Positions 3,870 to 52,691 of a stretch of 53,711 bases of DNA are shown here, one piece after another. This DNA is from a virus. Its lineage: Duplodnaviria > Caudoviricetes. How positions within the stretch are numbered: position 1 is the stretch's first letter; each line of letters starts with the position of its first letter. Under the pieces are notes generated by a model. That model saw only the letters and a list, made by a program, of their open reading frames with translations. It was not told the origin of the DNA and made no database searches. Location: the IMG/VR virus record IMGVR_UViG_3300017734_000008, positions 1 to 53,711 of that record; one strand, written 5' to 3'. The translations under genes and the position numbers were made by a program.

Positions 3870-4253
3870 ATGACAAAACTTTGTCCGAGAGGGAAAGCAG
3901 CAGCAAAGCGAAAATTCGCTGTGTATCCCTCAGCATATGCTAACGCCTACGCATCTAAAATCTGCGCTGGAAAAATTAAAGATCCATCTGGTGTAAAAAG
4001 AAAAGATTTTAAAGGACCTAAACCTGCTATGAAAGGTGGCATGATGAAATATGCTAAGGGGGATCAGGTTAAAGTAAATAAAGTTGCTGGAGCTTTAAGA
4101 AAAGCATCTAAGTTACATGCTGCGCAAGCAAAAGTTTTAAGCACAGTAAAAGCAAGTGAAGGAAAATATATTGGTTCATACATAAAAAGTGAAATAGATG
4201 GTAAAAAAATTTCTAATAAGTCTTATGAGTCTTATTACAAAGGTATGATCTAA
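3870..4253 (+). CDS. basic hypothetical protein (YPSAYAN family) with xxxGG motifs
   Basis: SD AAGGAG; AMKGG, YAKGD. Confidence 0.8.
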   Translation: MTKLCPRGKAAAKRKFAVYPSAYANAYASKICAGKIKDPSGVKRKDFKGPKPAMKGGMMKYAKGDQVKVNKVAGALRKASKLHAAQAKVLSTVKASEGKYIGSYIKSEIDGKKISNKSYESYYKGMI

Positions 4254-4834
4254 TGGCTAGAGGAACTTGCTGGGTAGGATACGAACAAAAAGGAATGAAG
4301 AAAAAAGGAAATAAAATGGTTCCAAATTGTGTTCCAGCAGGAATGAAAAAAGGTGGTTTAAAAGATTGGTTTGCTCAGAAGTGGGTAGACATAGGATCAA
4401 AGAAAAAAGGTGGGGGATTTAGAGAATGTGGAAGAAAATCTGCGAGTTCATCAAAACGAAAATATCCAAAGTGCGTGCCTGCTGCAAAAGCAGCAAGCAT
4501 GACAGACTCTCAAAGGAGGAGTGCCGTTGTAAGAAAAAGAGCTAAGGCACAAGGTGTAGGTGGTAAACCTACTAATGTAAAAACAATTTTGAAAAGAGAT
4601 GTTGGTGGAACTATAAAAATACCAAGTTATAAAAAAGGAAAATTTGGATTTAATTTATTTGAAGTTTCAAATTTACAAATAGACCCTAATTTAGCAAATT
4701 TAGAAAAAAATATTAGGAAGTCAAAAGCAAAAATTAATCCTGAATTAAATTACGGTACAATTTATAAAAAGGGAGAGTTGAATATAGGTATTAACAAAGA
4801 TAGACTAAGAATAGGATTTAAAAAGAGGTTTTAA
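4253..4834 (+). CDS. basic multi-module hypothetical protein (CWxGY...VPNCVP; WVDI...YPKCVP)
   Basis: Modules separated by MKKGG and RDVGG. Confidence 0.8.
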   Translation: MARGTCWVGYEQKGMKKKGNKMVPNCVPAGMKKGGLKDWFAQKWVDIGSKKKGGGFRECGRKSASSSKRKYPKCVPAAKAASMTDSQRRSAVVRKRAKAQGVGGKPTNVKTILKRDVGGTIKIPSYKKGKFGFNLFEVSNLQIDPNLANLEKNIRKSKAKINPELNYGTIYKKGELNIGINKDRLRIGFKKRF

Positions 4835-17785: not shown

Positions 17786-18847
17786 ATGGCAGGACCACTC
17801 GCATTTTTACCCTACGCACTAGCAGCCTACGGAGGATACAAAGGTTATAAAGGATCTAAAGACGCTGGTGGATCAGGAATTCAAAGATTATTAGGCGGAC
17901 TTACAGGAGCTGCAGCTGGATACTATGGGGGTAAAGGAATTTTAGGTGGCGGATCAGCTTTAGGCATTCCAGGTTTTGCAGGAGCACAACAATCATTTAC
18001 TCCTATCACAAGTATGTTCCCTCAGTTTGCTTCAATACCTGGAGTTGGACAAACACAACCTGAATTTTTAGGAACAGATAAATTTGGTAATTTAATTCCA
18101 AATAGAACAGCATCAGATTACTTAGCTGCAGCTACTCAAACTAATGCACCAACTGTTGACAATAGAAACGTGTTACAAAAATTATTTATGAGATCAAGAA
18201 AAGGTGTGCCTGGTGAAATGGAAATAGATCCACTAAAGGCGGCTTTTGGTGTTGGAGCACTAAGTTATTTCTCAGGTGCTTTTGAACCTCAACCACAAGA
18301 CGTGTTTACACCAACATATAATTTAGCTGTAGCCGAACTACAAAAACAAAGAGGTGGATTTAAATATATTGACCCAGTAGACGGTACAGAAAAAACTTTT
18401 GAACAACCATACATACCTGAAGCCGATCCTAAAAATCAAGGTGACTTTAGAATGGGCTCTTATGCAATAGAAAGAAACAGACTAAAAGAAGGTGGGCTAG
18501 CAGAAATTAAAAACTTTAATGAAGGTGGTATAAATTACTTACCAAGTAAAAGAACCCATAGTGAAGATGATTCGAACAACTATGTTAGAGCATCAGGATA
18601 TGTCGAAGATGGGTCTGGCACAGGAGATAAAGACGAGGATACAATGTTAGCTCAACTAGCGGACGGAGAGTTTGTAACAAGAGCAGATGGAGTATTAGGC
18701 GCAGGAATCATAGCTGGTGCAAATCCAAGTAGCATGAAAGATATGAGAGAAAAAGGTGCACAATACTTCTACGAACAACAGAAACGATATAAAAGAGTTT
18801 TTGATTTATTAGAAGGAAGTAGAAATGCAAAAGCCCAAGCCAATTAA
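17786..18847 (+). CDS. internal virion / ejection protein with C-terminal tape-measure-like GEFV domain
   Basis: Gly/Ala-rich hydrophobic N-terminus; GSGTGDKDEDTMLAQLADGEFV. Confidence 0.65.
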   Translation: MAGPLAFLPYALAAYGGYKGYKGSKDAGGSGIQRLLGGLTGAAAGYYGGKGILGGGSALGIPGFAGAQQSFTPITSMFPQFASIPGVGQTQPEFLGTDKFGNLIPNRTASDYLAAATQTNAPTVDNRNVLQKLFMRSRKGVPGEMEIDPLKAAFGVGALSYFSGAFEPQPQDVFTPTYNLAVAELQKQRGGFKYIDPVDGTEKTFEQPYIPEADPKNQGDFRMGSYAIERNRLKEGGLAEIKNFNEGGINYLPSKRTHSEDDSNNYVRASGYVEDGSGTGDKDEDTMLAQLADGEFVTRADGVLGAGIIAGANPSSMKDMREKGAQYFYEQQKRYKRVFDLLEGSRNAKAQAN

Positions 18848-19280
18848 ACCTGATATATCTGTTTTATCAGTAGAGCCAAAATACATAGATAAGTTTTGGC
18901 CATTATGTGATTTTATGATTGCAGAGGCATTGAAATACTCAGGGGGTTTTGCAGAACCCAAAGATATTAAAGACTTACTTAAAAAAGACGAAGCTCAATT
19001 GTTTCTTGTCTTCGGTAGCGATGAAGAAGAACTAAATCAAGTTTTTGCTCTATTTGTAACTCGTATTGCTGCTTTACCAAGTTATTCTCAACTTGAATCG
19101 ATTATATGTACTGGGAGAAAAAGACATTTATGGGAGGACAAGATAGTGAATACAGTCACAAAGTTTGCTAAACTAAACGGATGCAAAAAGCTTAGCTTTT
19201 GGGTAAGACCAGGTTGGTCTAAGGTATCAAAAAAATGGGGATGGAAAGCTAAACATATACAAATGGAGAAAGATTTATAA
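18825..19280 (+). CDS. GNAT-fold-like virion assembly protein (T7 gp13-like position)
   Basis: FAKLNGCK...RPGW.K pattern, placed before ejection genes. Confidence 0.55.
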   Translation: MQKPKPIKPDISVLSVEPKYIDKFWPLCDFMIAEALKYSGGFAEPKDIKDLLKKDEAQLFLVFGSDEEELNQVFALFVTRIAALPSYSQLESIICTGRKRHLWEDKIVNTVTKFAKLNGCKKLSFWVRPGWSKVSKKWGWKAKHIQMEKDL

Positions 19281-20143
19281 TGGGATCTATAGTATCAAGT
19301 ATATTTGGTGGAGGCGGTAGTAATGCACCTGCCCCAGCTTCAAGTGGAAATCAATTTACTCAATCTGTAATTAGAGAAGCTCCAGGTATCGAAGAACGAA
19401 AAATAGAATTAATGGATTTAGCTCGTGGTGTTGCGGGAAAACCAGTAGCAATACCTGCTATGCAGGTTGCACCTTTTAGTGCTTTAGAGCAACAAGGATT
19501 CACAGCAGCAGGAACAACAGGAGTAGGTCAACCAACAGTAACATCGGGCATCGGACAACTACTTGCTGCACAAACACCAAACATAAATCAATTTTTAAAT
19601 CCTTATCAATCATATGTAGTAGATGAAATTAATAGACAAGCAGCACAAGCTCAAAATAGATTATCAGCAAGTGCAGTATCGTCAGGAGCTTTTGGTGGAG
19701 GTAGAGAGGGAGTTGCACAAGCAGAATTAGAAAGAGCTAGATTAGGTCAAGTTGGTTTAGCTCAACAAAGAGGTTTTGGTCAAGCGTTAACTGCTGCTCA
19801 ACAACAGCAACAAATGCAAGGCAATATAGGAACTCAACTGGCAAACATTGGTCAAGGTCAGCAACAAATGGCACAAGCTGATTTAAATCAATTGTTACAA
19901 GCAGGTGGTTTACAAAGACAACTAGCTCAAACTACGTTAGATGCTGCTAGACAATCACAACTACAACAATCTTTTGAACCTTTTCAAAGAGCTGAATTTT
20001 TATCTAATGTTTATGCTGCTGGACCTAAATCACAATCTTCATTAACAGCTGCAACTACACCTCAGACTAGCCCATTAGCTCAATCTATAGGAACTGGTAT
20101 CGGAGCATTCCAAGCATTCCAAGGTATGCAGGGAGGGAAGTAA
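19280..20143 (+). CDS. Gln/Ala/Gly-rich DNA ejection (pilot) protein
   Basis: NPYQ..V, GAFGG.R motifs. Confidence 0.7.
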   Translation: MGSIVSSIFGGGGSNAPAPASSGNQFTQSVIREAPGIEERKIELMDLARGVAGKPVAIPAMQVAPFSALEQQGFTAAGTTGVGQPTVTSGIGQLLAAQTPNINQFLNPYQSYVVDEINRQAAQAQNRLSASAVSSGAFGGGREGVAQAELERARLGQVGLAQQRGFGQALTAAQQQQQMQGNIGTQLANIGQGQQQMAQADLNQLLQAGGLQRQLAQTTLDAARQSQLQQSFEPFQRAEFLSNVYAAGPKSQSSLTAATTPQTSPLAQSIGTGIGAFQAFQGMQGGK

Positions 20144-22440
20144 TGTCCCTAAATAAAGTTTTAAATAGACCATTATTTAGAAAACAAGCTTTAAAAAAAG
20201 GTGCATTAAAACCTATTAAAGCAGCAAATGGAGAAATGATCGGTCCTATGCCTCCTAATTTAAGACAAAGATTTACTAACACAATGTCTTCAGGTATAGG
20301 CGCATTAAAAAATTTTGGTAAAGATGCATTAAGAACTGGACCAGGTGGCGTTGCTGTTTATGGTGGATTAGAAGCTATTGATCCGAGACTAGCAGCTGGA
20401 GTTGGTGCAGGAGAATTAAGTTTATTAGGTGCTCGTTTTATTCCTGGTGCTAAACAAGCAGTAAATAGAATTTCAAGATTCACTCCTTTTGGTATGCTAA
20501 GTAACATGCCATTTAAAAGAGCTACTGGAATAGGTTTAGCTACATTAGCTGGCGGTAAAATGATTCAAGGTTTTAAGAATCGTAATAGAGAAAGAGAGTT
20601 TGTTAAAGAATATGCAAAAAGAAATAATTTAGATGTTGATGAAACGTTATCATTATACGAAAGAGATCTACCAGGACTTACTAGAGGTTTTAGTGGATTA
20701 AGAACATCTGATTTAGCAAAAGCTACTACTATAGCATCACAAGATTTTAAAACTGCTGCTACTCCATTGACTGAAGAGCAGAAAGAAAAAATAGGAAACA
20801 TAAATAAATTTATTGAAAAAAGATATAACTACCAAGATTTAGATTCTTTAGCGCAAGACACAAAAAAAGCTAAAACTGTTTTGGATGAAGGTGTGAGAGT
20901 AGACGAGACATTAACCTCTGATCCTGACTCTGAAATGGCAATATTAGATGAGGCACAAAGAAAAGAACAAACTAATTTAGAGGACACAAGAAATAAAGCA
21001 GCAATACTTACGGGACAATTGATGAGTAAATTTAATATTACTGATCAACTCAAAGCTTTGAATATAGCCTCTGCTATGACAGATGGTTTAATCTCAGAAG
21101 GTCAAGTGCAAACAGTGTTAGATAATCCAGATGAATATGGAAAGATACCAAACAAATCTAATGATCCTAACCATCCAACAGCTGTGGCTGATAAACCTGA
21201 GACTATACAAGACGCTAAAGAAGACCCTAATGTTACATTATCAAAAACTTTGGGCGTAGAAACTGAACAAAGCACACCATCAGGCGATAAAGAAATTGAT
21301 TTAGGTAAAAAGTTTTTAGTAGATTTACAAAATCCGAGAGAGACTGAAGTTAATCCTAAAAGTTATTTTTTAACAAAATTAGCTCTAGGTTTGATTTCAG
21401 GAAAAACAAATAAAAGAGGATTGGCAGGAGCTGTAGAAATAGCTGCAACAGTTATGGGACCTGCGTTTGATGGAGCTATTGCTTTAAAAATGAAAAACGA
21501 TGAAAATTATAGAGATTTTGTAACTGCAGCTACAGATAGAAACATAAAATTGTATGAAATGTTTAATAAAGATAGAAAACAAGGTAAGTTTGATAACGGA
21601 TCTATCTTAATAAATGGAATATATTATGAAGCTAAACAAGATAGAGACACAGGTAATTATTTTGTTGTTGATGAACAAAATAATTTGAGACCTGTAAATC
21701 AAAATGCAGGTACATTCTACAAAAGAACGATAGATAAAAATTATTTTGATCAAGTAAAACTTTTATCTGATGGATATATTTCTCAAGATATCTTAGAAGA
21801 TTCAATAAAATTATTCAAAGACCCACAAATCGGAAGCAAAGTAAAAGGTCCTGCTGCTATAATTTTAAGTGCTGCTGATACATTGAAAGCTTTACCTAGT
21901 GCCGTAATTGAAGGAATCAAAGGAGCAGGTGGTGACTTTACAATGACAAATGTTGAAGATCCATTATCAGAAAAAGAATTTAGTAATTTACAAAAGAGAA
22001 CAGATAATGCTTTAAAAAAATTAGAAAAAGAGTTTCAAGCAGGTTTGGATGAGGGTAATGAAGCTGCAAAAGTATTAGGACAATTAGAAGTTAATGCAAG
22101 ATTCTTAACTTATTCATTAGCTAATGCTTTGAAAGAAAAAGACAGGTTAACAAACAGAGACTTACAACTTTTAGAAGAGCTTACAGAGTTCAGATTAATT
22201 AAAAACCCTGCTCGTATTCAAGAAAAATATGAAGAACTATTAAGAAGAGTTAAACAGAAGAATGCTGTTAGAAGAACTAGATTTGGAACTCTTGGTAATT
22301 CAGACATAGCAATTCAAAATATTATAGGACAAATATATAAAGCAACAAAAGCTGCGCCTAGAAAAAATGAGAAAACTGTAAAACCAAAATCAACTGAGGA
22401 TGCCTTTGATATTTTAATTCAAAAGGCAATACCAAACTAA
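20143..22440 (+). CDS. large internal virion / ejection protein
   Basis: 765 aa, helical; N-terminal LNRPLFR; position. Confidence 0.6.
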   Translation: MSLNKVLNRPLFRKQALKKGALKPIKAANGEMIGPMPPNLRQRFTNTMSSGIGALKNFGKDALRTGPGGVAVYGGLEAIDPRLAAGVGAGELSLLGARFIPGAKQAVNRISRFTPFGMLSNMPFKRATGIGLATLAGGKMIQGFKNRNREREFVKEYAKRNNLDVDETLSLYERDLPGLTRGFSGLRTSDLAKATTIASQDFKTAATPLTEEQKEKIGNINKFIEKRYNYQDLDSLAQDTKKAKTVLDEGVRVDETLTSDPDSEMAILDEAQRKEQTNLEDTRNKAAILTGQLMSKFNITDQLKALNIASAMTDGLISEGQVQTVLDNPDEYGKIPNKSNDPNHPTAVADKPETIQDAKEDPNVTLSKTLGVETEQSTPSGDKEIDLGKKFLVDLQNPRETEVNPKSYFLTKLALGLISGKTNKRGLAGAVEIAATVMGPAFDGAIALKMKNDENYRDFVTAATDRNIKLYEMFNKDRKQGKFDNGSILINGIYYEAKQDRDTGNYFVVDEQNNLRPVNQNAGTFYKRTIDKNYFDQVKLLSDGYISQDILEDSIKLFKDPQIGSKVKGPAAIILSAADTLKALPSAVIEGIKGAGGDFTMTNVEDPLSEKEFSNLQKRTDNALKKLEKEFQAGLDEGNEAAKVLGQLEVNARFLTYSLANALKEKDRLTNRDLQLLEELTEFRLIKNPARIQEKYEELLRRVKQKNAVRRTRFGTLGNSDIAIQNIIGQIYKATKAAPRKNEKTVKPKSTEDAFDILIQKAIPN

Positions 22441-25400
22441 TGGCTACTTTAAAACAACAACAATTCGCTGATAAAATTACTCAAGCGATTAAAGATAACA
22501 AATTTGCACCAGAAAATTTAAATGCAAATGAAAGAGAAGCTGTAGATGTTTTAATTAAAAATGGTGTAATTAAATCTGAGAAAAATGTTAATCAGATATT
22601 AGATGAAAGAAACAAAGCTAGAATAGATATTTCACAAGCCCAAACTGTTGCAAGAGATCCTCTTTCAGCTGCATTTGAATTAGACGATTCTAAAATACCT
22701 TTAGCTGATTCTATATTCACGGGTAGAACTACATCAGTTTTAGCTGGTGATGTGGGTGGAGCTGTAGCCTATCAATATTTTAATAAAGATAAAGTTCTTC
22801 AACAATACAAAGACCGAGGAAAATTAAAAACAAAAGGCATAAGATTTTTTGAAAATTTAGCAAATAAATTACCAGCAAGATTTAAATTTACAAAAGCTGC
22901 TGCCACAGCTGCAGCTAAATTAGGTGATACGTTTGCAGCAAGACCCATCACAAGAATAGCAAAAAGTCCTTTAGGTAGATTTGAAGTAGGAACAGCAGTA
23001 GCGGGTACAGCAGGCGCAGGTGTCGGAGATTTAGCTTATTCAGCTGCCGATGCTATTTTAGGAGAAGACATTTATAACGGTATCATGGAAGATTTATCAG
23101 AAATACCTTACAAACCACCTGAAAAATTAAATGCTGTAGAATCAGCTTTAGTCTCAGTGAAAAACGCTGCTTTATTTAATGCGGCAGCCACAGGTATTAC
23201 CCCTTTATTTATGGCATTAGGTAAAGGCTTAAATAAAATTTTTGGTACAACAGGTGCTGCGCAAAAAAAGTATGCAGAATTTGCTAGAGATAAAGGATTG
23301 GATGCTCCCTTACTTGGATTTTTAAGAGATGGTAGTTTGTCAGAACCAGCAAGAAATTTTTTTAAAACTATTGGTGTTTTCCCAGGTATCTCTCCGATAG
23401 CTGATAAAGCTTTACTTAAAACAGAACAAGCGACCTCTAAAGTATTTTTTGATAATGTAGAATCTATTGCTCCTGTTTATCACCAAGCTTTTTTAGGTCA
23501 AGAAGTAATAGATCAAATGAGAAAAGTGTACGCACAAAACGTAGCTGCGTATGATAAATTATACGATAACTTTTATAAAGCTGCAGATCTTGCTTTAGAT
23601 CCTGCTATTATGAGCACTGACAATATAGTCAAAGAGGCAGAATTATTTTTATCAAGAAGAAGTGCTGAAATACCAGATGCTTTCAAAGCGTTTCAGGAAG
23701 GTAATTCAGCAGCAGCACAAAAGTTATTAGAGGAGGGTGATCCATTAAATACATTCATGGCAATGACTGGCGCATTGAAAGGTAAAAACATTACTTTTAA
23801 ACAATTTAAATTCATGAATAAACTTTTAAACGATGTAGGAAACCAAACAAAATATTACGCTATGAACCAAGAATTTGGTGCTTTAAAAAACGCGTTAGAA
23901 TTAGATGTAGCTAGTTTTGGAAAAAATTTAAATGCTAATGCATTAATGAAAGATGAAAAATTTGCTCAGGCTGTTGCTGGAGCTGGTGGTCTTCGAAGTG
24001 CTGGTGGTAAACAACTTATAGATACGACAGTAAAAGCAGGAAATTCTTTGCTTACAAAAATGAAAAATGCAAATGAGGCTTTTTCTAGAACGATGAAACT
24101 TTATGATAATGAAGGTTATTTTTTAAAAAAAAAATTACAAAAAATAGATTCCAACGCTTTAACAGGTAAAGGTTTGATAAACTTTTTAGGTAGAACTAAT
24201 ATGCCGAAAGAAGATTTATTTAAAACATTTGAAGACGCTGTATTCACATCAAGATCTCCATCAGCATTACAAACTTATAAAAAAATGATTGGAGCACAAA
24301 AAGGTTTTGAGGGTTTTAGTGAAAAAGGTGTTAAATTATTTAAATCATCTTTTTCTAAATTTTTACATGACGCGTACATAGGATCTTTTGTTGGTAAACC
24401 ATTGCAAGGTGCGGTAGGTCAAGGACAAATTTCATTAGGTGTAATGGGTAAAATATTCAGAGGTGGTGATTTGTCTGTAAAACCTTTCACATCTGTAATG
24501 GATGATGCTAATCGTTTAGCAGAATTAACACAAGCAGGTGGATCTTACAGTACAAAAACAAGTGCAGATAATTTAGTAAACACAAAAAATTACAAATTTG
24601 GTCCTGATGATTTTAAAGAATTTGATGCCAATACGTTTATTGATACTCTAGGTATTGGAGCAACGAGACAAGCTCAATCTGCATCTCAGATGTTAGAAGA
24701 TGCATATTTCACAATTACAGGAAGCAGACAAGCAGCTAAAAGATCTGTACAAGATTTAAGAGATTTTGCTCAACATTTACAACTGATTTCAGATGTGCCA
24801 GTAACAAACTCATCTACTTTCATTCAAAGAAGATTACAATTATCTGGTATCGGAGGTTTGACAGGAGTAGCAATTGGTGCGGGAGCTGGAGCTGCTACTG
24901 ACAGCCCTTTAATAACATTTTTATCTCTTTTACTTGTAGGTAGATATGCTGGTAGAGTTTTAACTGATCCTCAATTACTAAGAGTTGTTAATGATACGTT
25001 GAGACCTCAAGAGATAGCCCAAATTGTTGGCACGAAGGTAACTCCAAAAGCAAAAATTTTACCTGCACAAAAAAGAGAAACATTTTTTAAAGCATTAAAT
25101 AAATTCTTTAATGATGACGATGATTTTATAAAAATTGATCCAAAACAAGTAGACTTTGAACAAATAACAAATTACTTGGACAGCAAAGCTGTATCCATAG
25201 ATACTCCTAATTATGGTCCTAATTTAGAAAATGTTCCTGAATCTACTGTTCTAGCTATGTATGATGAAGAGCTTACACAATTACCAAGTGAGAAACAAAA
25301 AGAAGAAGAGGTAGCTTTATATAACGGTATGGCTACGAGTATTGACCAAGCAAGAGATGCATTTGAAGATCCAAGAGATGACAGATCTCAAACAGAGGTT

Positions 25401-25538
25401 CCAAATTTACCATTACCACAAGTACCACAAATGACCACACAACCCACAGGACAGGTTAGTGCACAACAAGTTCAACAGTTATTCCCATTTGACACAACTG
25501 CTGCAGCTATAGCTCAAAGGAGACAGAATCGTGGCTAA
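22440..25538 (+). CDS. large internal virion / ejection protein
   Basis: 1032 aa, Ala-rich helical with hydrophobic Gly-rich segments. Confidence 0.62.
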   Translation: MATLKQQQFADKITQAIKDNKFAPENLNANEREAVDVLIKNGVIKSEKNVNQILDERNKARIDISQAQTVARDPLSAAFELDDSKIPLADSIFTGRTTSVLAGDVGGAVAYQYFNKDKVLQQYKDRGKLKTKGIRFFENLANKLPARFKFTKAAATAAAKLGDTFAARPITRIAKSPLGRFEVGTAVAGTAGAGVGDLAYSAADAILGEDIYNGIMEDLSEIPYKPPEKLNAVESALVSVKNAALFNAAATGITPLFMALGKGLNKIFGTTGAAQKKYAEFARDKGLDAPLLGFLRDGSLSEPARNFFKTIGVFPGISPIADKALLKTEQATSKVFFDNVESIAPVYHQAFLGQEVIDQMRKVYAQNVAAYDKLYDNFYKAADLALDPAIMSTDNIVKEAELFLSRRSAEIPDAFKAFQEGNSAAAQKLLEEGDPLNTFMAMTGALKGKNITFKQFKFMNKLLNDVGNQTKYYAMNQEFGALKNALELDVASFGKNLNANALMKDEKFAQAVAGAGGLRSAGGKQLIDTTVKAGNSLLTKMKNANEAFSRTMKLYDNEGYFLKKKLQKIDSNALTGKGLINFLGRTNMPKEDLFKTFEDAVFTSRSPSALQTYKKMIGAQKGFEGFSEKGVKLFKSSFSKFLHDAYIGSFVGKPLQGAVGQGQISLGVMGKIFRGGDLSVKPFTSVMDDANRLAELTQAGGSYSTKTSADNLVNTKNYKFGPDDFKEFDANTFIDTLGIGATRQAQSASQMLEDAYFTITGSRQAAKRSVQDLRDFAQHLQLISDVPVTNSSTFIQRRLQLSGIGGLTGVAIGAGAGAATDSPLITFLSLLLVGRYAGRVLTDPQLLRVVNDTLRPQEIAQIVGTKVTPKAKILPAQKRETFFKALNKFFNDDDDFIKIDPKQVDFEQITNYLDSKAVSIDTPNYGPNLENVPESTVLAMYDEELTQLPSEKQKEEEVALYNGMATSIDQARDAFEDPRDDRSQTEVPNLPLPQVPQMTTQPTGQVSAQQVQQLFPFDTTAAAIAQRRQNRG

Positions 25539-45122: not shown

Positions 45123-45344
45123 ATGCCAATAAAAGTAACACCAATCAAAGGTGGAAAATATGATAAAGCTGATGCTCAAGATAAAATGGAAAAAATTGGT
45201 AAAGCTAAGGAAAAAACTAAATTAAAACCAATAGGCGCACAGCCCGCAAACAAAGTTGAAAAAGTTGAAGGTATGATGACTGGTGGTATGTGCAGAGGTA
45301 TGGGCGCAGCTATCAAAGGTGGAAAGTTTGGAGGAGTTAAGTAA
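45123..45344 (+). CDS. small basic protein with MMTGG and RGMGAAIKGGKF
   Basis: ORF track; coupled to next gene. Confidence 0.75.
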   Translation: MPIKVTPIKGGKYDKADAQDKMEKIGKAKEKTKLKPIGAQPANKVEKVEGMMTGGMCRGMGAAIKGGKFGGVK

Positions 45345-46393
45345 TGGGTGATGTGAGGACAGAAAGAAGAAAGCTTCTATTAATGAAAGAAGCTGAAATG
45401 AGATCTAAAAGAAAAAAAATGGGTAGAATGGGGCCTCTTAAACCAACTAGGATGGGAAAAATAGAAGAAAGACCTTTAATGACTAGAGGCATGATTGAGA
45501 GAAGAAAAGAAATGGAAAAAAGAAATTCAAGAGCATTACCACCAGCAGCAGGTATGTTATCAGGTGGCCAAGCTAAGATTGCAGCTAAAGCTCCACCACG
45601 AAATAAAATCAATGCAAAAGATTTTGAAGTGCTTAGAGCTGAAAAAGCTAAAGGCAGAGGACAAGGTTTACAAGACGAGAAATTAAAACCAGGTAAAGTT
45701 ACTAAAGCAGCACTTGGTGTATTAGCTGCAGGTTTAAGCGCAAAAAAAAGAATGGATGAGAAAAAAATGGCACCCGTTGGAATAGGTGGTATAGGAGCTA
45801 GTATGGCTAGACTCGATGCTATAAAAAAAATTTTAGGAAAAAATAAAGGTGGTGTTATGAAAGCTAACGAAGGCGGTATGGGTGAAGCTAAAGGTTACAA
45901 AAAATATTTAAAAGGATTAAAGAAAGCTGAGGGAGCACAATTTAGAGCTAAATTCAAAGCAAAAGAAATAGCTAAAGCTGGTGGTAAAGCAGCTTTGAGA
46001 GCAGCTAAAGCTTCTAGAATAGGTAAGATCGCAGCTGGTGTAGCAGCAGTAGGATTGGGAGCAAAAGAATTTTTAAAAAGAAAAATGGAAAAGAATAAAA
46101 ACAAGCCACAGAAAAAAATGGGCGGTGGCATGATGATGCAAAGACCTATTAAAGCTGTAGGAGGTGCTGCCATATCAGCAATAGCTGCTGGGGCAGGAAC
46201 AATAGGTGCTGCTGCTTTAAGAGCAAACAAAAAACTTGCTGAAAAAAAAGCCAAAGAGAAAAAAAAGAAAATGGAAAAGCCTAAAAAGAAAATGGGCGGT
46301 GGCATGATGCAAAGACCTATGGGATATTCAAAAGGTACGTCTGTAAAAGTTAAATGTAAACTTGGTAGAAACAAACCTACTAAAATGTACTAG
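45344..46393 (+). CDS. K/A/G/M-rich low-complexity polyprotein-like protein
   Basis: Repeated xxxGG linkers; duplicated KKMGGGMM(M)QRP. Confidence 0.75.
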   Translation: MGDVRTERRKLLLMKEAEMRSKRKKMGRMGPLKPTRMGKIEERPLMTRGMIERRKEMEKRNSRALPPAAGMLSGGQAKIAAKAPPRNKINAKDFEVLRAEKAKGRGQGLQDEKLKPGKVTKAALGVLAAGLSAKKRMDEKKMAPVGIGGIGASMARLDAIKKILGKNKGGVMKANEGGMGEAKGYKKYLKGLKKAEGAQFRAKFKAKEIAKAGGKAALRAAKASRIGKIAAGVAAVGLGAKEFLKRKMEKNKNKPQKKMGGGMMMQRPIKAVGGAAISAIAAGAGTIGAAALRANKKLAEKKAKEKKKKMEKPKKKMGGGMMQRPMGYSKGTSVKVKCKLGRNKPTKMY

Positions 46394-46401
46394 GAGGGTC
46401 A

Positions 46402-48282
46402 ATGGCCCTCAAAGATCTTTTCAAACGAGGTATATCTTCACTTTTAAAAAAACAAAAAAAGGATGTTGTTGATCCTAGCGCAGTTCAACGTGTTCAAAAT
46501 CAACCACAACAAGTTCTACCACAAGAAACTAAAGGTACTGCCTTACAGACTGTAAGAAAAGATTTAGCCATTCAACAATACCCAACTCCACCAAGAACAG
46601 GTGCCTTACAAATGGGTACACCTCCAACTCAAAATTTAATGTTTGGTAGTGCGTTGTACGACCGTATAGCACAAAAAGGCCCAGGCACATTCACAGCTGA
46701 TGAATGGATGAAATTCTTAACAGATGTGAGAGAAAGAAATTTAAAAATATTTGGACAAAACTATAAAGAAAAAGTTTTGAATCCTGTCAAATTTAATTAT
46801 GATAACACATCGGGGTATCTAGCTGGTAAACAAACTTCGGTTCCATTAGAAGAATTATTTGATTCTAATATAGCAGCTTTTTCACCTACAGGTGAATTAA
46901 CAGGTGGTGTCTTGCATGCAGCTAAATTAGCAGGTGTCAAAGTGCCAGGTAAAGTTTTGACTGACTTAGTAAGACTTAACCCAGTAAATAGATTACAAGC
47001 TACAGAGTTTTCAAACTCGTTAACTGAACCAGTCAAAAAAAGATTATATCAAAAATTTAAAAACACTTTCGATAAAATAAATAATCAAGTAAACGATCCT
47101 GAGTTTTCGCAAGTTTTAAACCGTTACACAGATGCATTAGAGAGGGGAATACCTGCTAAACCAAACATTCCTATGTTAATGGGTAGATACCCACAGTTTA
47201 AAAAAGAGCTTCAACAATTAGACTTTGAATTTGATGATTTATCAAGAGTTAGAAAAAATTTAAAACCTCCAAGATATGAAAACGAAAGCGGTTATACTTT
47301 TGAAGGTGGTCAAAACTATAGAGAAACAGTTATATCTTTACCTGAAGAAATAGTTGGTAACAGACCAACAAAATATTTTGGACACTATAAAGATAAAGGT
47401 TTAGAAAATCCTATCATGCATATTAGATACGATACAAGATTTGCACCTAACGGTGATAAAATATTAATGATACACGAAATTCAATCAGACACTCAACAAC
47501 AAATTGCTAAAGCATTAAGACAAAACAAAATATCAGGTTATGACGCATCCCTTAGAGTAAACCCATACCAAAAAGATACAGAAATTGCTTTCTTATTACA
47601 AGCTAGACAAAAACTCGGAGACAAAATTTTAGCAGGTAACATGGGTAGATTAGAAAGTGATCAAGCAGCAAGGGGTATAAAATCAATTGATAAAGTTTTA
47701 ATCAACAAAGGTGCTGGGCAACCAGCAAGGATTGGATCGAATTATGGCGGTGCTGATGCAAACTTTTACCCTTTGTTAGATAGAAGTAGTTATAATAACT
47801 ATGCTTTAAAATATTTATTAAATAAGGCAGCAAAAGAAAAATTTGATTATGTGGCTGTTATACCTACAAATTATGTAAGTAGAGGCGGTGGCAGTGGTAA
47901 AGCTTTAGGGACAATAGAAAATTATGGTTTTGCTAATGGTGGTAAAACTCCTACGGGAAAATCATTAGCAGTCATTCCAGCTGAAATGAAAAAACAAGCA
48001 AAGTTATTTGATACAAAGTCAGGAAAGATTAAATTTAGCTTATCTGATCCTAACAAACCATACAAAAAGGTGTCCACAAAAGATGTTGATATGGGAGGTA
48101 AAACATACAAAATAAAATACCATGAAGATGCTCAAGAATTTCAGCAACCAGACACAAGGTTTATTGGCAAATTTGATTTAAACTTGTATGGTGAGGCGTA
48201 TGGTGTTAAAGTATCTCCATTAATGCTGCAAACCCAAAAATTATATAAAAAAGAAGGTGGCTTAGTACAATATGGCGGTTGA
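46402..48282 (+). CDS. large polyvalent-protein-like virion protein
   Basis: NYRE...GHY...H.R...HEIQSD block; C-terminal YKKEGGLV. Confidence 0.6.
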   Translation: MALKDLFKRGISSLLKKQKKDVVDPSAVQRVQNQPQQVLPQETKGTALQTVRKDLAIQQYPTPPRTGALQMGTPPTQNLMFGSALYDRIAQKGPGTFTADEWMKFLTDVRERNLKIFGQNYKEKVLNPVKFNYDNTSGYLAGKQTSVPLEELFDSNIAAFSPTGELTGGVLHAAKLAGVKVPGKVLTDLVRLNPVNRLQATEFSNSLTEPVKKRLYQKFKNTFDKINNQVNDPEFSQVLNRYTDALERGIPAKPNIPMLMGRYPQFKKELQQLDFEFDDLSRVRKNLKPPRYENESGYTFEGGQNYRETVISLPEEIVGNRPTKYFGHYKDKGLENPIMHIRYDTRFAPNGDKILMIHEIQSDTQQQIAKALRQNKISGYDASLRVNPYQKDTEIAFLLQARQKLGDKILAGNMGRLESDQAARGIKSIDKVLINKGAGQPARIGSNYGGADANFYPLLDRSSYNNYALKYLLNKAAKEKFDYVAVIPTNYVSRGGGSGKALGTIENYGFANGGKTPTGKSLAVIPAEMKKQAKLFDTKSGKIKFSLSDPNKPYKKVSTKDVDMGGKTYKIKYHEDAQEFQQPDTRFIGKFDLNLYGEAYGVKVSPLMLQTQKLYKKEGGLVQYGG

Positions 48283-50608: not shown

Positions 50609-50734
50609 ATGGCAAGAACAGCAAGAGAGAAAAGAAAAGGTCTTAGTGGCGGAAAAAAATTTGGACCACCACCAAAAAGAGGACCAAACCCGCAAGGTAT
50701 TACAATTCCCAGTAAAAGAAAAAAGAGAATCTAA
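50609..50734 (+). CDS. 41-aa basic peptide (GGKKFGPPPKRGPNPQG), not in ORF track
   Basis: Hand translation; motif recalled after portal in related phages. Confidence 0.6.
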   Translation: MARTAREKRKGLSGGKKFGPPPKRGPNPQGITIPSKRKKRI

Positions 50735-51101
50735 TCAAGAAGCATATTTCGCAGGTATTATTGATGGCGAAGGGTATATTTCATACGAAAAAACTAAAAA
50801 AAATTACTCAATACCTTCTGTTTCTGTTGAAATGACAGACAAAGATGTAATTGATGGAATATATAAATTTTTCAATACTGGATCTGTTGTTTATATCAAA
50901 CCAAGGCAAAAACATCATTTAGATAGCTGGAGATGGAGAGCTAGAGGTAAATCTGCAGTGAATATTTACTTCAAAATATATAATTATTTAAGTGCGAGAA
51001 GAAAAGGTAAGATAGATGAGGTATTGAAAAAATACTGTGAAGATGCTAACGGTAGAGAGAAGTATAAAAAATTAGAAAGGGTATTAAATGGCGTGGTTTA
51101 G
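50646..51101 (+). CDS. single-motif LAGLIDADG homing-endonuclease-like protein
   Basis: AYFAGIIDGEGYI...V.MTD...W.W...YL..R. Confidence 0.85.
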   Translation: MAEKNLDHHQKEDQTRKVLQFPVKEKRESNQEAYFAGIIDGEGYISYEKTKKNYSIPSVSVEMTDKDVIDGIYKFFNTGSVVYIKPRQKHHLDSWRWRARGKSAVNIYFKIYNYLSARRKGKIDEVLKKYCEDANGREKYKKLERVLNGVV

Positions 51102-52244: not shown

Positions 52245-52691
52245 ATGACAGAGTCCACGGAGCAACCGAAACGGACTGAGACATTAAAAAAAGCTTACAA
52301 AGATGAAGCTAAAGTTAAAAAAGTCTTAGACCAAAAAGCAATAGATAAAAAACTTTTAGATAGATTACCTACGCCTACGGGTTACAGAATGTTAATTCTT
52401 CCCTACGCGGGTCCAGAAAAGACAAAAGGTGGTTTGTATTTAAGTGAAAACACTCAAGAAACAATTCAGTTAACAACAGTAGTTGGCCTTGTATTAAAAC
52501 AAGGTAACCTTTGTTATAGGGATAAAGAAAAGTTTCCCTTAGGCAAATGGTGCGCTGAACAAGATTGGGTTATCTTCGGAAGATACGCAGGCTCTCGATT
52601 CAAAATAGAAGGCGGAGAAGTGCGGATCTTAAATGATGATGAAATCATTGCGACCATATCTAATCCTGCCGATATTTTGCACCATTACTAG
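52245..52691 (+). CDS. groES: co-chaperonin GroES
   Basis: PTGYR.LI...KTKGGL.L...FGRYAG...E.RILNDDEIIA. Confidence 0.92.
   Translation: MTESTEQPKRTETLKKAYKDEAKVKKVLDQKAIDKKLLDRLPTPTGYRMLILPYAGPEKTKGGLYLSENTQETIQLTTVVGLVLKQGNLCYRDKEKFPLGKWCAEQDWVIFGRYAGSRFKIEGGEVRILNDDEIIATISNPADILHHY

Follow-up and report, generated by a model that had tools for sequence, protein, structure and literature searches.

In phage T5, the last 42–43 residues of pb2*, its tape measure protein, come after a hydrophobic stretch of 46 residues and were seen by cryo-electron microscopy to be wedged between hub subunits after receptor binding (PMC10038345). By analogy with T5, the authors of a study on phage JBD30 speculated that a stretch of its tape measure protein, which they predicted to be a "hook" of two helices and a beta-hairpin, anchors the protein inside the baseplate once its far C-terminus has left (PMC11445458). 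A review on ejection proteins describes, in its passages on tape measure, glycine and cleavage, no motif that these proteins have in common with tape measure proteins (PMC8954989). Here, we report on a 353-amino acid (aa) protein encoded on the + strand at positions 17786..18847 (stop included) of the IMG/VR virus record IMGVR_UViG_3300017734_000008, all 53,711 nucleotides of which were analyzed (hereafter, the window). This protein (hereafter, the target protein) ends in a terminal version, here from a podovirus, of a tape-measure "hook" module that is uncatalogued and that looks like a self-associating docking clasp rather than a protease.

The window has a G+C content of 35% and a CheckV completeness of ~89%, and codes for a terminase, a portal, a DNA polymerase, a primase and helicases. 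Among cultured phages, Pelagibacter phage HTVC023P is the nearest relative, and its gp79 (annotated as hypothetical) is a homologue of the target protein with 43% identity over 72% of the latter. HTVC023P-type phages have a podovirus morphology, as seen by electron microscopy of HTVC023P (bioRxiv 10.1101/2019.12.14.876532), and are reported to constitute the top-abundance group in most of the marine viromes examined (bioRxiv 10.1101/2019.12.14.876532; PMC9599517). The target protein itself gave no Pfam or NCBIfam match at E ≤ 0.1, and no PHROG match.

The C-terminal module and its tape measure relatives

Alignment of 24 homologues of the target protein (alignment A1) revealed that the first 70 and the last 120 residues are conserved, while residues 71–150 are rich in indels. 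More specifically, mean pairwise identity was 74% in the Gly/Ala/Tyr-rich N-terminal segment (residues 1–70, 30% Gly; 17786..17995, + strand), 28% in the hypervariable linker (residues 71–150; 17996..18235, + strand), 66% over residues 151–231, 83% over residues 232–353, and 95% over residues 268–312. Invariant in the 24 homologues were G236, G237, G247 and G248, together with nearly every residue of 268–312. The C-terminal module, which lies on the same strand, is composed of three parts. Its N-terminal part is a bipartite Gly-Gly joint with invariant glycines (RLKEGGLAEIKNFNEGG; residues 232–248, 18479..18529), and this is followed by a core (DTMLAQLADGEFV; residues 268–312, 18587..18721) that is shared with tape measure proteins according to profile and BLAST searches and that forms the predicted self-association surface in the complex model discussed below. 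The helix-prone tail (residues 313–353, 18722..18844), with conserved R321, G324, A325 and Y329, is specific to the terminal (non-tape-measure) form, and a low-confidence full-length model of the target protein contains a helix from residue 317 to 352.

Within the module, RLKEGG corresponds to residues 232–237 (from base 18479), FNEGG to residues 244–248, and GYVEDGSGTGDKDEDTMLAQLADGEFVTRADGV to residues 271–303. An earlier reading of the letters alone (the first-pass annotation) had placed LKEGG and FNEGG directly before the block that carries GEFV; all of these motifs are present, but 22 residues separate FNEGG from GYVEDG (INYLPSKRTHSEDDSNNYVRAS). With a Gly content of 14.2%, the target protein counts 9 GG dipeptides versus the ~7 expected from its composition, which means that GG is not enriched. 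As judged from the alignments, it is the conservation and homology of the block, and not the frequency of GG, that is beyond chance.

More than 3492 clusters of relatives (at 90% identity), all of them unnamed, were obtained for the target protein at E ≤ 1e-3 when 8000 candidates were scored. A scan of 1.84 billion representative sequences, with residues 225–353 as query, retrieved 117 proteins at E ≤ 1e-3, from which P0207 and P0225 were dropped as repeat proteins with a low-complexity likeness; the remaining matches are proteins of 250–530 aa, or fragments, with the block at their C-terminus. In alignments of 27 (A2) and 46 (A3) diverse members, G278, D285, A289, L291, D293, G294, E295, F296, V297, G305, G307, R321, G324, A325 and Y329 were (nearly) invariant. 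The canonical marine form of the module reads phi-M-N-x-G-G-I-A-x-L-G-x-G-G-Y-P-R-R-T-G-x-I-x-G-P-G-T-x-T-S-D-S-I-P-A-M-L-S-D-G-E-F-V-x-T-A-K-A-V-R-G-A-G...G-A-K-x-M-Y-A-L-M.

When longer proteins were sought with the target's own C-terminus, none of 268 candidates passed at E ≤ 0.01, and this search instead used the canonical form from P0211, yielding 816 longer metagenomic proteins at E ≤ 1e-3. Among the 120 of these that were listed (439–2000 aa), 119 carry the module at most 20 residues from the C-terminus. The N-terminal parts joined to the module range from 250 to ~1200 residues, and one longer metagenomic protein, a TP901-type tape measure, has two internal copies. The window itself holds only 1 copy of the GEFV core. 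In these searches, the module (~95–120 aa) is uncatalogued, having no Pfam or NCBIfam entry, nor a PHROG for its pelagiphage form.

When the A1 profile was compared with all PDB chain sequences, the sole match was mycobacteriophage Douge's tape measure protein, which was hit twice in its chain (whole-sequence E 2.7e-8). The A3 profile recovered this same protein at E 5.6e-10, with its copies at independent E-values of 8.8e-6 and 1.4e-4. Moreover, when the 76-aa C-terminus of P0213, a distant relative, served as tblastn query, 878 phage records were retrieved at E ≤ 1, with Gordonia (258), Mycobacterium (240) and Pseudomonas (165) as hosts, and further mainly Arthrobacter, Burkholderia and Vibrio. 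Nearly all of the 60 matches listed were situated in genes annotated as tape measure protein, in addition to pelagiphages HTVC023P, 103P and 104P. Four proteins with the canonical form (HTVC103P gp79, that of DSL-LC04, and the metagenomic proteins P0263 and P0269) matched 5–8 tape measure PHROGs, solely over 35–60 module residues. The C-terminus of the phi1026b tape measure protein matched those of JBD30 (8rk3_A, E 3e-9) and Douge via the same motif, and the module is also present in Vibrio phage PG28's tape measure protein. No paper was found that pairs GEFV with tape measure proteins.

The tape measure protein gpH of lambda was not detected when compared with the family profile by hhalign, and was also absent from the results of the PDB-sequence profile search. 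Nevertheless, phage phi1026b, which has lambda-type M, L, K, I and J tail genes, aligns with lambda gpH at BLASTP E 5e-11, in such a way that FHLATGG...TSDSIPAQLSN-GEFV comes to lie over the FHFATGG...GEFV region, and FAAGGLVG over YATGGYVG (in gpH, FATGG ends at 737, GEFV is at 754, and YATGG ends at 782). By this alignment, lambda gpH carries a degenerate copy of the module at the homologous place, where the FATGG...GEFV named in the first-pass annotation is indeed found. On the strength of the Douge, tblastn and PHROG matches, the target block is a homologue of a short module found in siphoviral tape measure proteins, as its initial labelling as tape-measure-type had anticipated.

This kinship concerns the module, for which we looked for the core G-x-G-T-x-x-x-D-x-x-x-A-x-L-x-(D/N)-G-E-F-V and a significant profile match to tape measure copies, and both were found. 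Tape measure proteins as a functional class were taken to have a length proportional to the tail and a gene located between tail chaperone and distal tail genes of a long-tailed phage, and the target protein, with 353 aa, a podovirus origin, and glycosyltransferases and a putative ejection protein as neighbours, falls outside this class. It likewise matched none of PF06791, PF09718, PF10145, TIGR01541 and TIGR01760, whereas lambda gpH and the tape measure protein P0278 match theirs. In siphovirus tape measure proteins, the core comes after a hydrophobic stretch rich in Gly and before the extreme C-terminus, which the baseplate hub holds.

The Gly-Gly joint accompanies the core in most relatives. 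Within at most 80 aa upstream of the core, a bipartite GG was found in 223 of 349 module-bearing proteins, and at least one GG-hydrophobic motif in 277 of them. In 80 related viral loci, the module was always present (80/80), the core pattern was found in 74 and the bipartite joint in 67, with loci truncated by contig ends among the misses. In the target protein, the joint consists of LKEGGL and FNEGGI, the glycines of which are invariant in A1, and in lambda, phi1026b, PG28, Douge, JBD30 and P0278 a phi-x-x-G-G-phi joint directly precedes the core while a second one follows 15–35 residues after it. Because joints bracket or adjoin the core both in relatives and in tape measure proteins, LKEGG and FNEGG constitute the N-terminal joint of the module. 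The view that such xxxGG motifs are separate targets was accordingly dropped, as they form part of the module in cis.

Motifs resembling these joints were also observed in two other proteins of the window. A 626-aa protein (46402–48282), encoded between terminase and portal and without Pfam or PHROG family, ends in LYKKEGGLVQYGG. All 27 related loci (38–92% identity) retain its LYKxEGGLV, while its terminal GG is not kept, the last residues varying between YGG, YGN, HGN, YGS and VDIFKTL. A Lys/Arg-rich 349-aa protein (45344–46393), without family match, has KMGGGMM repeats of which 1 to 4 copies occur among relatives, next to a block (MLTGGQAK...DFxxLRAEKAKGRGQGLQDEK) and a C-terminus (KVKCKLGRNKPTKMY) that are both conserved.

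A predicted clasp and its alternatives

Only G-E-F/Y-V, together with glycines and hydrophobics, is universal across all forms of the module, the Glu of G-E-F-V being the sole universal polar residue. This pattern of glycines and alternating hydrophobics is the one expected as the requirement of a strand-turn-strand. We lean, if cautiously, towards the module being a non-enzymatic clasp or anchor of a virion-associated, probably ejected protein. In an HTVC023P-type podovirus, the target gene would encode such a protein, whose last 120 residues represent the terminal form of a widespread module built from a joint (phi-x-x-G-G-phi), a loop (G-x-G-T-x-x-x-D), a strand-turn-strand (A-x-L-(S/A)-(D/N)-G-E-F-V), a turn (G-x-G) and a helix. 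Module copies would pair via the GEFV strand and the following helix, and the paired modules would keep the ejected protein's C-terminal ends together and/or dock these at the tail exit. This docking can be likened to the proposal for the JBD30 "hook" and to the end of T5 pb2*, which is positionally equivalent yet unrelated in sequence. For the target protein, we infer the virion location, the ejection and the docking partner, while self-association of the module is a prediction of the complex model.

In this model, three copies of residues 225–353 were folded together using alignment A3, with 3 controls alongside. The three-copy prediction reached interaction prediction scores from aligned errors (ipSAE) of 0.53, 0.48 and 0.48 (median 0.48) versus 0.01 for the best of the 3 controls, with a predicted local distance difference test (pLDDT) value of at least 68 for the partner, and with at least 82% of contacts common to the runs. 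Among proteins solved as one-chain pairs, 20 of 30 reached the mark used, compared with 1 of 23 among those solved as single chains; these counts are a rough guide for a prediction with its own alignment and three copies. The confidently predicted interface consists of residues 280–309 and 321–346, and includes most of the conserved residues; the pairs with the lowest error include V297–V297, and the interface contacts fit strand pairing plus a helix. The model takes the shape of a symmetric clasp via the GEFV strand, and supports binding, although it falls short of a demonstration.

Several points nevertheless weigh against a clasp. Two copies are paired in the complex model while the third is nearly free, so that the predicted stoichiometry is at odds with the trimeric ends of tape measure proteins. 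The full-length AlphaFold model has a mean pLDDT of 47, with values below 50 across residues 232–304, and the parts built in solved entries (Douge 1658–1699, the last 33 residues of JBD30, and lambda gpH 818–849) are not the module. To our knowledge, podoviruses have no gp27-type baseplate hub. Furthermore, the T5 pb2 anchor gave no match to the module profile even at E 100. As no classical transmembrane helix was found in the target protein (highest Kyte-Doolittle 19-residue mean of 0.89), the parallel with a hydrophobic stretch followed by an anchor is a loose one; some relatives have more hydrophobic N-terminal segments and do possess a classical membrane helix. Finally, HTVC103P gp79 (431 aa, with five xxGG-hydrophobic motifs) is encoded not in an ejection cassette but between the portal and capsid genes, and the "DNA ejection protein" near the target gene owes this name to a PHROG label only.

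A possible but doubtful alternative is that the joints serve as cleavage or cassette-junction sites for another (host or further phage) protease, with the GEFV core as a fragment that is released or retained like lambda gpHC. Cleavage at this place would agree with the T5 data, in which R1127 is the mapped cleavage site of pb2 (PMC10038345) and AEGGMM directly follows in the sequence, and tape measure proteins are cut close to the module in both lambda (PMC12617516), whose C-terminal processing the first-pass annotation had named, and T5. Moreover, an Arg was present 1–7 residues ahead of the post-core joint in each of the 7 tape measure proteins inspected by eye (lambda MRGYATGG, phi1026b ARFAAGG, PG28 GRIPHFNTGG, Douge PRFDSGG, P0278 QRFKEGG, JBD30 VRHATGG and T5 PRAEGG), and the varied length of the N-terminal parts attached to the module would suit a cassette junction. 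However, close homologues have R, K or T at the position of R232 ahead of LKEGG, and in lambda a cut after R777 would release ~8 kDa and one after FATGG 12.2 kDa, versus the ~14 kDa reported (PMC12617516).

Both readings could be combined, in that the GG...GEFV module might be a common "leading-end" device of DNA-delivery proteins in long- and short-tailed phages, i.e., a self-clasping hook with flanking joints that are cut in maturation, at a site like the one mapped in T5 just ahead of AEGG. We deem this unlikely, but if true, the pelagiphage protein would amount to a minimal tape measure C-terminus that lacks the ruler, and studying it would show how, and for what reason, lambda gpH is split into gpH* and gpHC.

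Still less probable is that the module binds a component of the host envelope that Gram-positive and Gram-negative hosts share (e.g., peptidoglycan), and so fixes the ejected protein in the cell wall. The presence of the module in phages of both Actinobacteria and Proteobacteria speaks for a universal partner, and one module match was to a PHROG labelled endolysin; tape measure proteins also often carry wall-directed domains. On the other hand, the module has no likeness to LysM, SH3b, PG_binding or any other Pfam family, and self-association provides an equally universal partner, with support from the model.

The first-pass annotation had proposed the module as a protease or reader, i.e., an autoprotease or its recognition subunit that would cut phi-x-x-G-G sites in cis and in other virion proteins. 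On this reading, the cut of lambda gpH would be explained as well. In line with this, D285, D293 and E295 are three acidic residues invariant in the terminal form (A2), the T5 cut after R1127 lies two residues ahead of EGGMM (PMC10038345), and xxGG-hydrophobic motifs recur, as in the LYKxEGGLV near the end of the 626-aa protein. The 48 further open reading frames (ORFs) of the window contain no other protease family save a Peptidase_M15_3 lysin. Prok-JAB (PF14464), considered as a candidate GG-specific protease after the example of lambda gpK, was absent from the window in a six-frame search.

No Ser, Thr, Cys, His or Lys is conserved across A2 and A3, however, and neither alignment therefore holds the nucleophile with Lys/His partner of a Ser/Thr/Cys autoprotease (S24/S26, S74, Ntn-type, C39 or adenain-like). 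The HxxxD and HxH of an M23 glycyl-glycine metallopeptidase and the JAMM motif of a JAB/MPN isopeptidase were equally missing, with no conserved His and no Pfam match. D293 is replaced by Asn in Douge, phi1026b, PG28 and JBD30, and both Asp are missing in register from lambda, so that the one phage for which cleavage is proven is without the candidate residues. In addition, the target protein matched no peptidase family in Pfam, NCBIfam or PHROGs, the authors of the JBD30 study found no peptidase motif (PMC11445458), the title of a T5 reference cited in PMC10038345 points to a host role in the cut of the tail protein, and a protease gene may lie beyond the record, as the latter is ~89% complete. 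Enzymatic activity of the module itself is therefore the least probable of these explanations.

Some other likenesses were considered and rejected. An S24/S26-like reading, in which SDSIPAxLSxGEFV is compared with the motif GDSMxPTL, was ruled out because position 286 varies between T, S, D, E and K and K323 is not kept (A2, A3). For an RTX/EF-hand calcium loop, PAAR, or a SEA-type GSVVV, there was no family match and the register does not fit. The crAss-like cargo protein 1 (PF25725) was a lead that at 0.79 remained below the bar, without match at E ≤ 10 in six frames.

Gene neighbourhood and further features of the window

The target gene is followed on the + strand by its syntenic partner, a gene for a 151-aa protein (p151; 18825..19280), which overlaps it by 23 bases (18825–18847). 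In many related loci, the tblastn match to p151 likewise starts before the target match ends, and this recurrent overlap suggests translational coupling. Next come a 287-aa protein (p287; 19280..20143, + strand) matching phrog_4287 "DNA ejection protein" (E 7.2e-9), and two large proteins of 765 and 1032 aa (20143..25538, + strand) with hydrophobic segments but without family match, which are candidates for further ejection proteins. As far as the contigs extend, 81 loci (HTVC023P and 80 viral contigs) share the gene order p726, glycosyltransferase, glycosyltransferase-like, target, p151, p287, p765, p1032, exonuclease. The target gene thus resides in a putative ejection-protein cassette, in keeping with its first assignment as a podovirus ejection gene.

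A related arrangement exists in DSL-LC04, an unrelated metagenome-assembled phage, where a 759-aa module gene annotated as tape measure is directly followed by a phrog_4287 protein, near genes annotated "DNA transfer protein" and "stabilization protein". In "Flyfo podovirus Tbat2_2" (OL617040.1) and Morganella phage Henu15 (PQ197041.1), the module was observed in a gene annotated as tape measure protein, near the start of their ~52 kb genomes; these are possibly further short-tailed phages with the module.

Elsewhere in the window, an ORF for a LAGLIDADG-type homing endonuclease (50646–51101; PF05204, E 1.4e-5) lies just past the portal gene, and one for a GroES-like co-chaperonin (52245–52691; Cpn10, E 1e-8) immediately ahead of the probable capsid gene (from 52701 to the window end, phrog_28737). 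Positions 3870–4834 encode two small basic Cys-containing proteins. In the second, residues 4–30 (MARGTCWVGYEQKGMKKKGNKMVPNCVP) have matches in short segments of five unrelated PHROGs without an assigned function, which makes this stretch a mobile mini-motif. Pfam matches of the 48 smaller ORFs of the window were SU10_adaptor, Pam3_Gp34, a Pam3 gp33-like protein, three 2OG-Fe(II) oxygenases, Peptidase_M15_3 and VRR-NUC.

Comparison with known DNA-delivery proteins

The module ties a highly abundant marine podovirus to tape measure proteins, the best-studied DNA-delivery proteins, and represents a piece of the tape measure C-terminus that is used by phages lacking any tail tube to be measured. 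With 878 phage records and 816 longer metagenomic proteins, it is common even though uncatalogued, and it falls in the unbuilt part of lambda gpHC, adjoining the gpH cleavage (PMC12617516). A small, soluble terminal version such as the target protein would be a convenient object for structure solution.

Like the ejection proteins of T7 (gp14–16) and P22 (gp7/gp20/gp16), the target protein is encoded in a cassette of rising gene size after the tail genes, with a neighbour labelled as ejection protein, although no sequence likeness to these proteins was found. The anchor of T5 pb2* (residues 1085–1127) resembles the proposed clasp in docking an ejected, channel-forming protein to the opened tail tip and in being followed by a phi-x-G-G-phi-phi sequence (AEGGMM), but its partner is the baseplate hub pb3 (PMC10038345); since there is no sequence likeness, T5 provides an analogy and not a member of the module family.

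Closer in sequence is lambda gpHC (approximately residues 690–853), which is within the part cut off in tail maturation (PMC12617516) and displays the same order of Gly-rich stretch, FATGG joint, GEFV and second joint (YATGG). It differs from the target protein in its degenerate core, in being part of a tape measure, and in the binding of its residues 818–849 to gpI, a partner that is absent in the target phage (PMC12617516). Douge gp16 (PDB 8zdo chain S; PMC13033339), the best-scoring sequence among solved entries, has two copies of GPGTGRSDSMLARVSNGEFITRA, each located after YAGGGF or YANGGF and before RFDSGGL. Its copies, however, are internal (952–998 and 1406–1445) to a 1699-aa protein of which only residues 1658–1699 were modelled.

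The hook of JBD30 is internal as well, being part of a 1158-aa siphovirus tape measure protein in which it is followed by ~90 residues seated in the baseplate; it has Asn at the equivalent of D293, lacks the conserved GA..FY..QQ terminal helix, and was predicted rather than solved. Yet residues 1022–1066 of JBD30 gp46 (PDB 8rk3 chain A sequence) contain the same core motif (FASGGHIKGPGTGTSDSIPILASNDEFMTRAAVV), preceded by a phi-x-x-G-G joint, and this hook was predicted as helix plus beta-hairpin and, like the clasp that we favor for the target protein, proposed to be a non-enzymatic anchor (PMC11445458).

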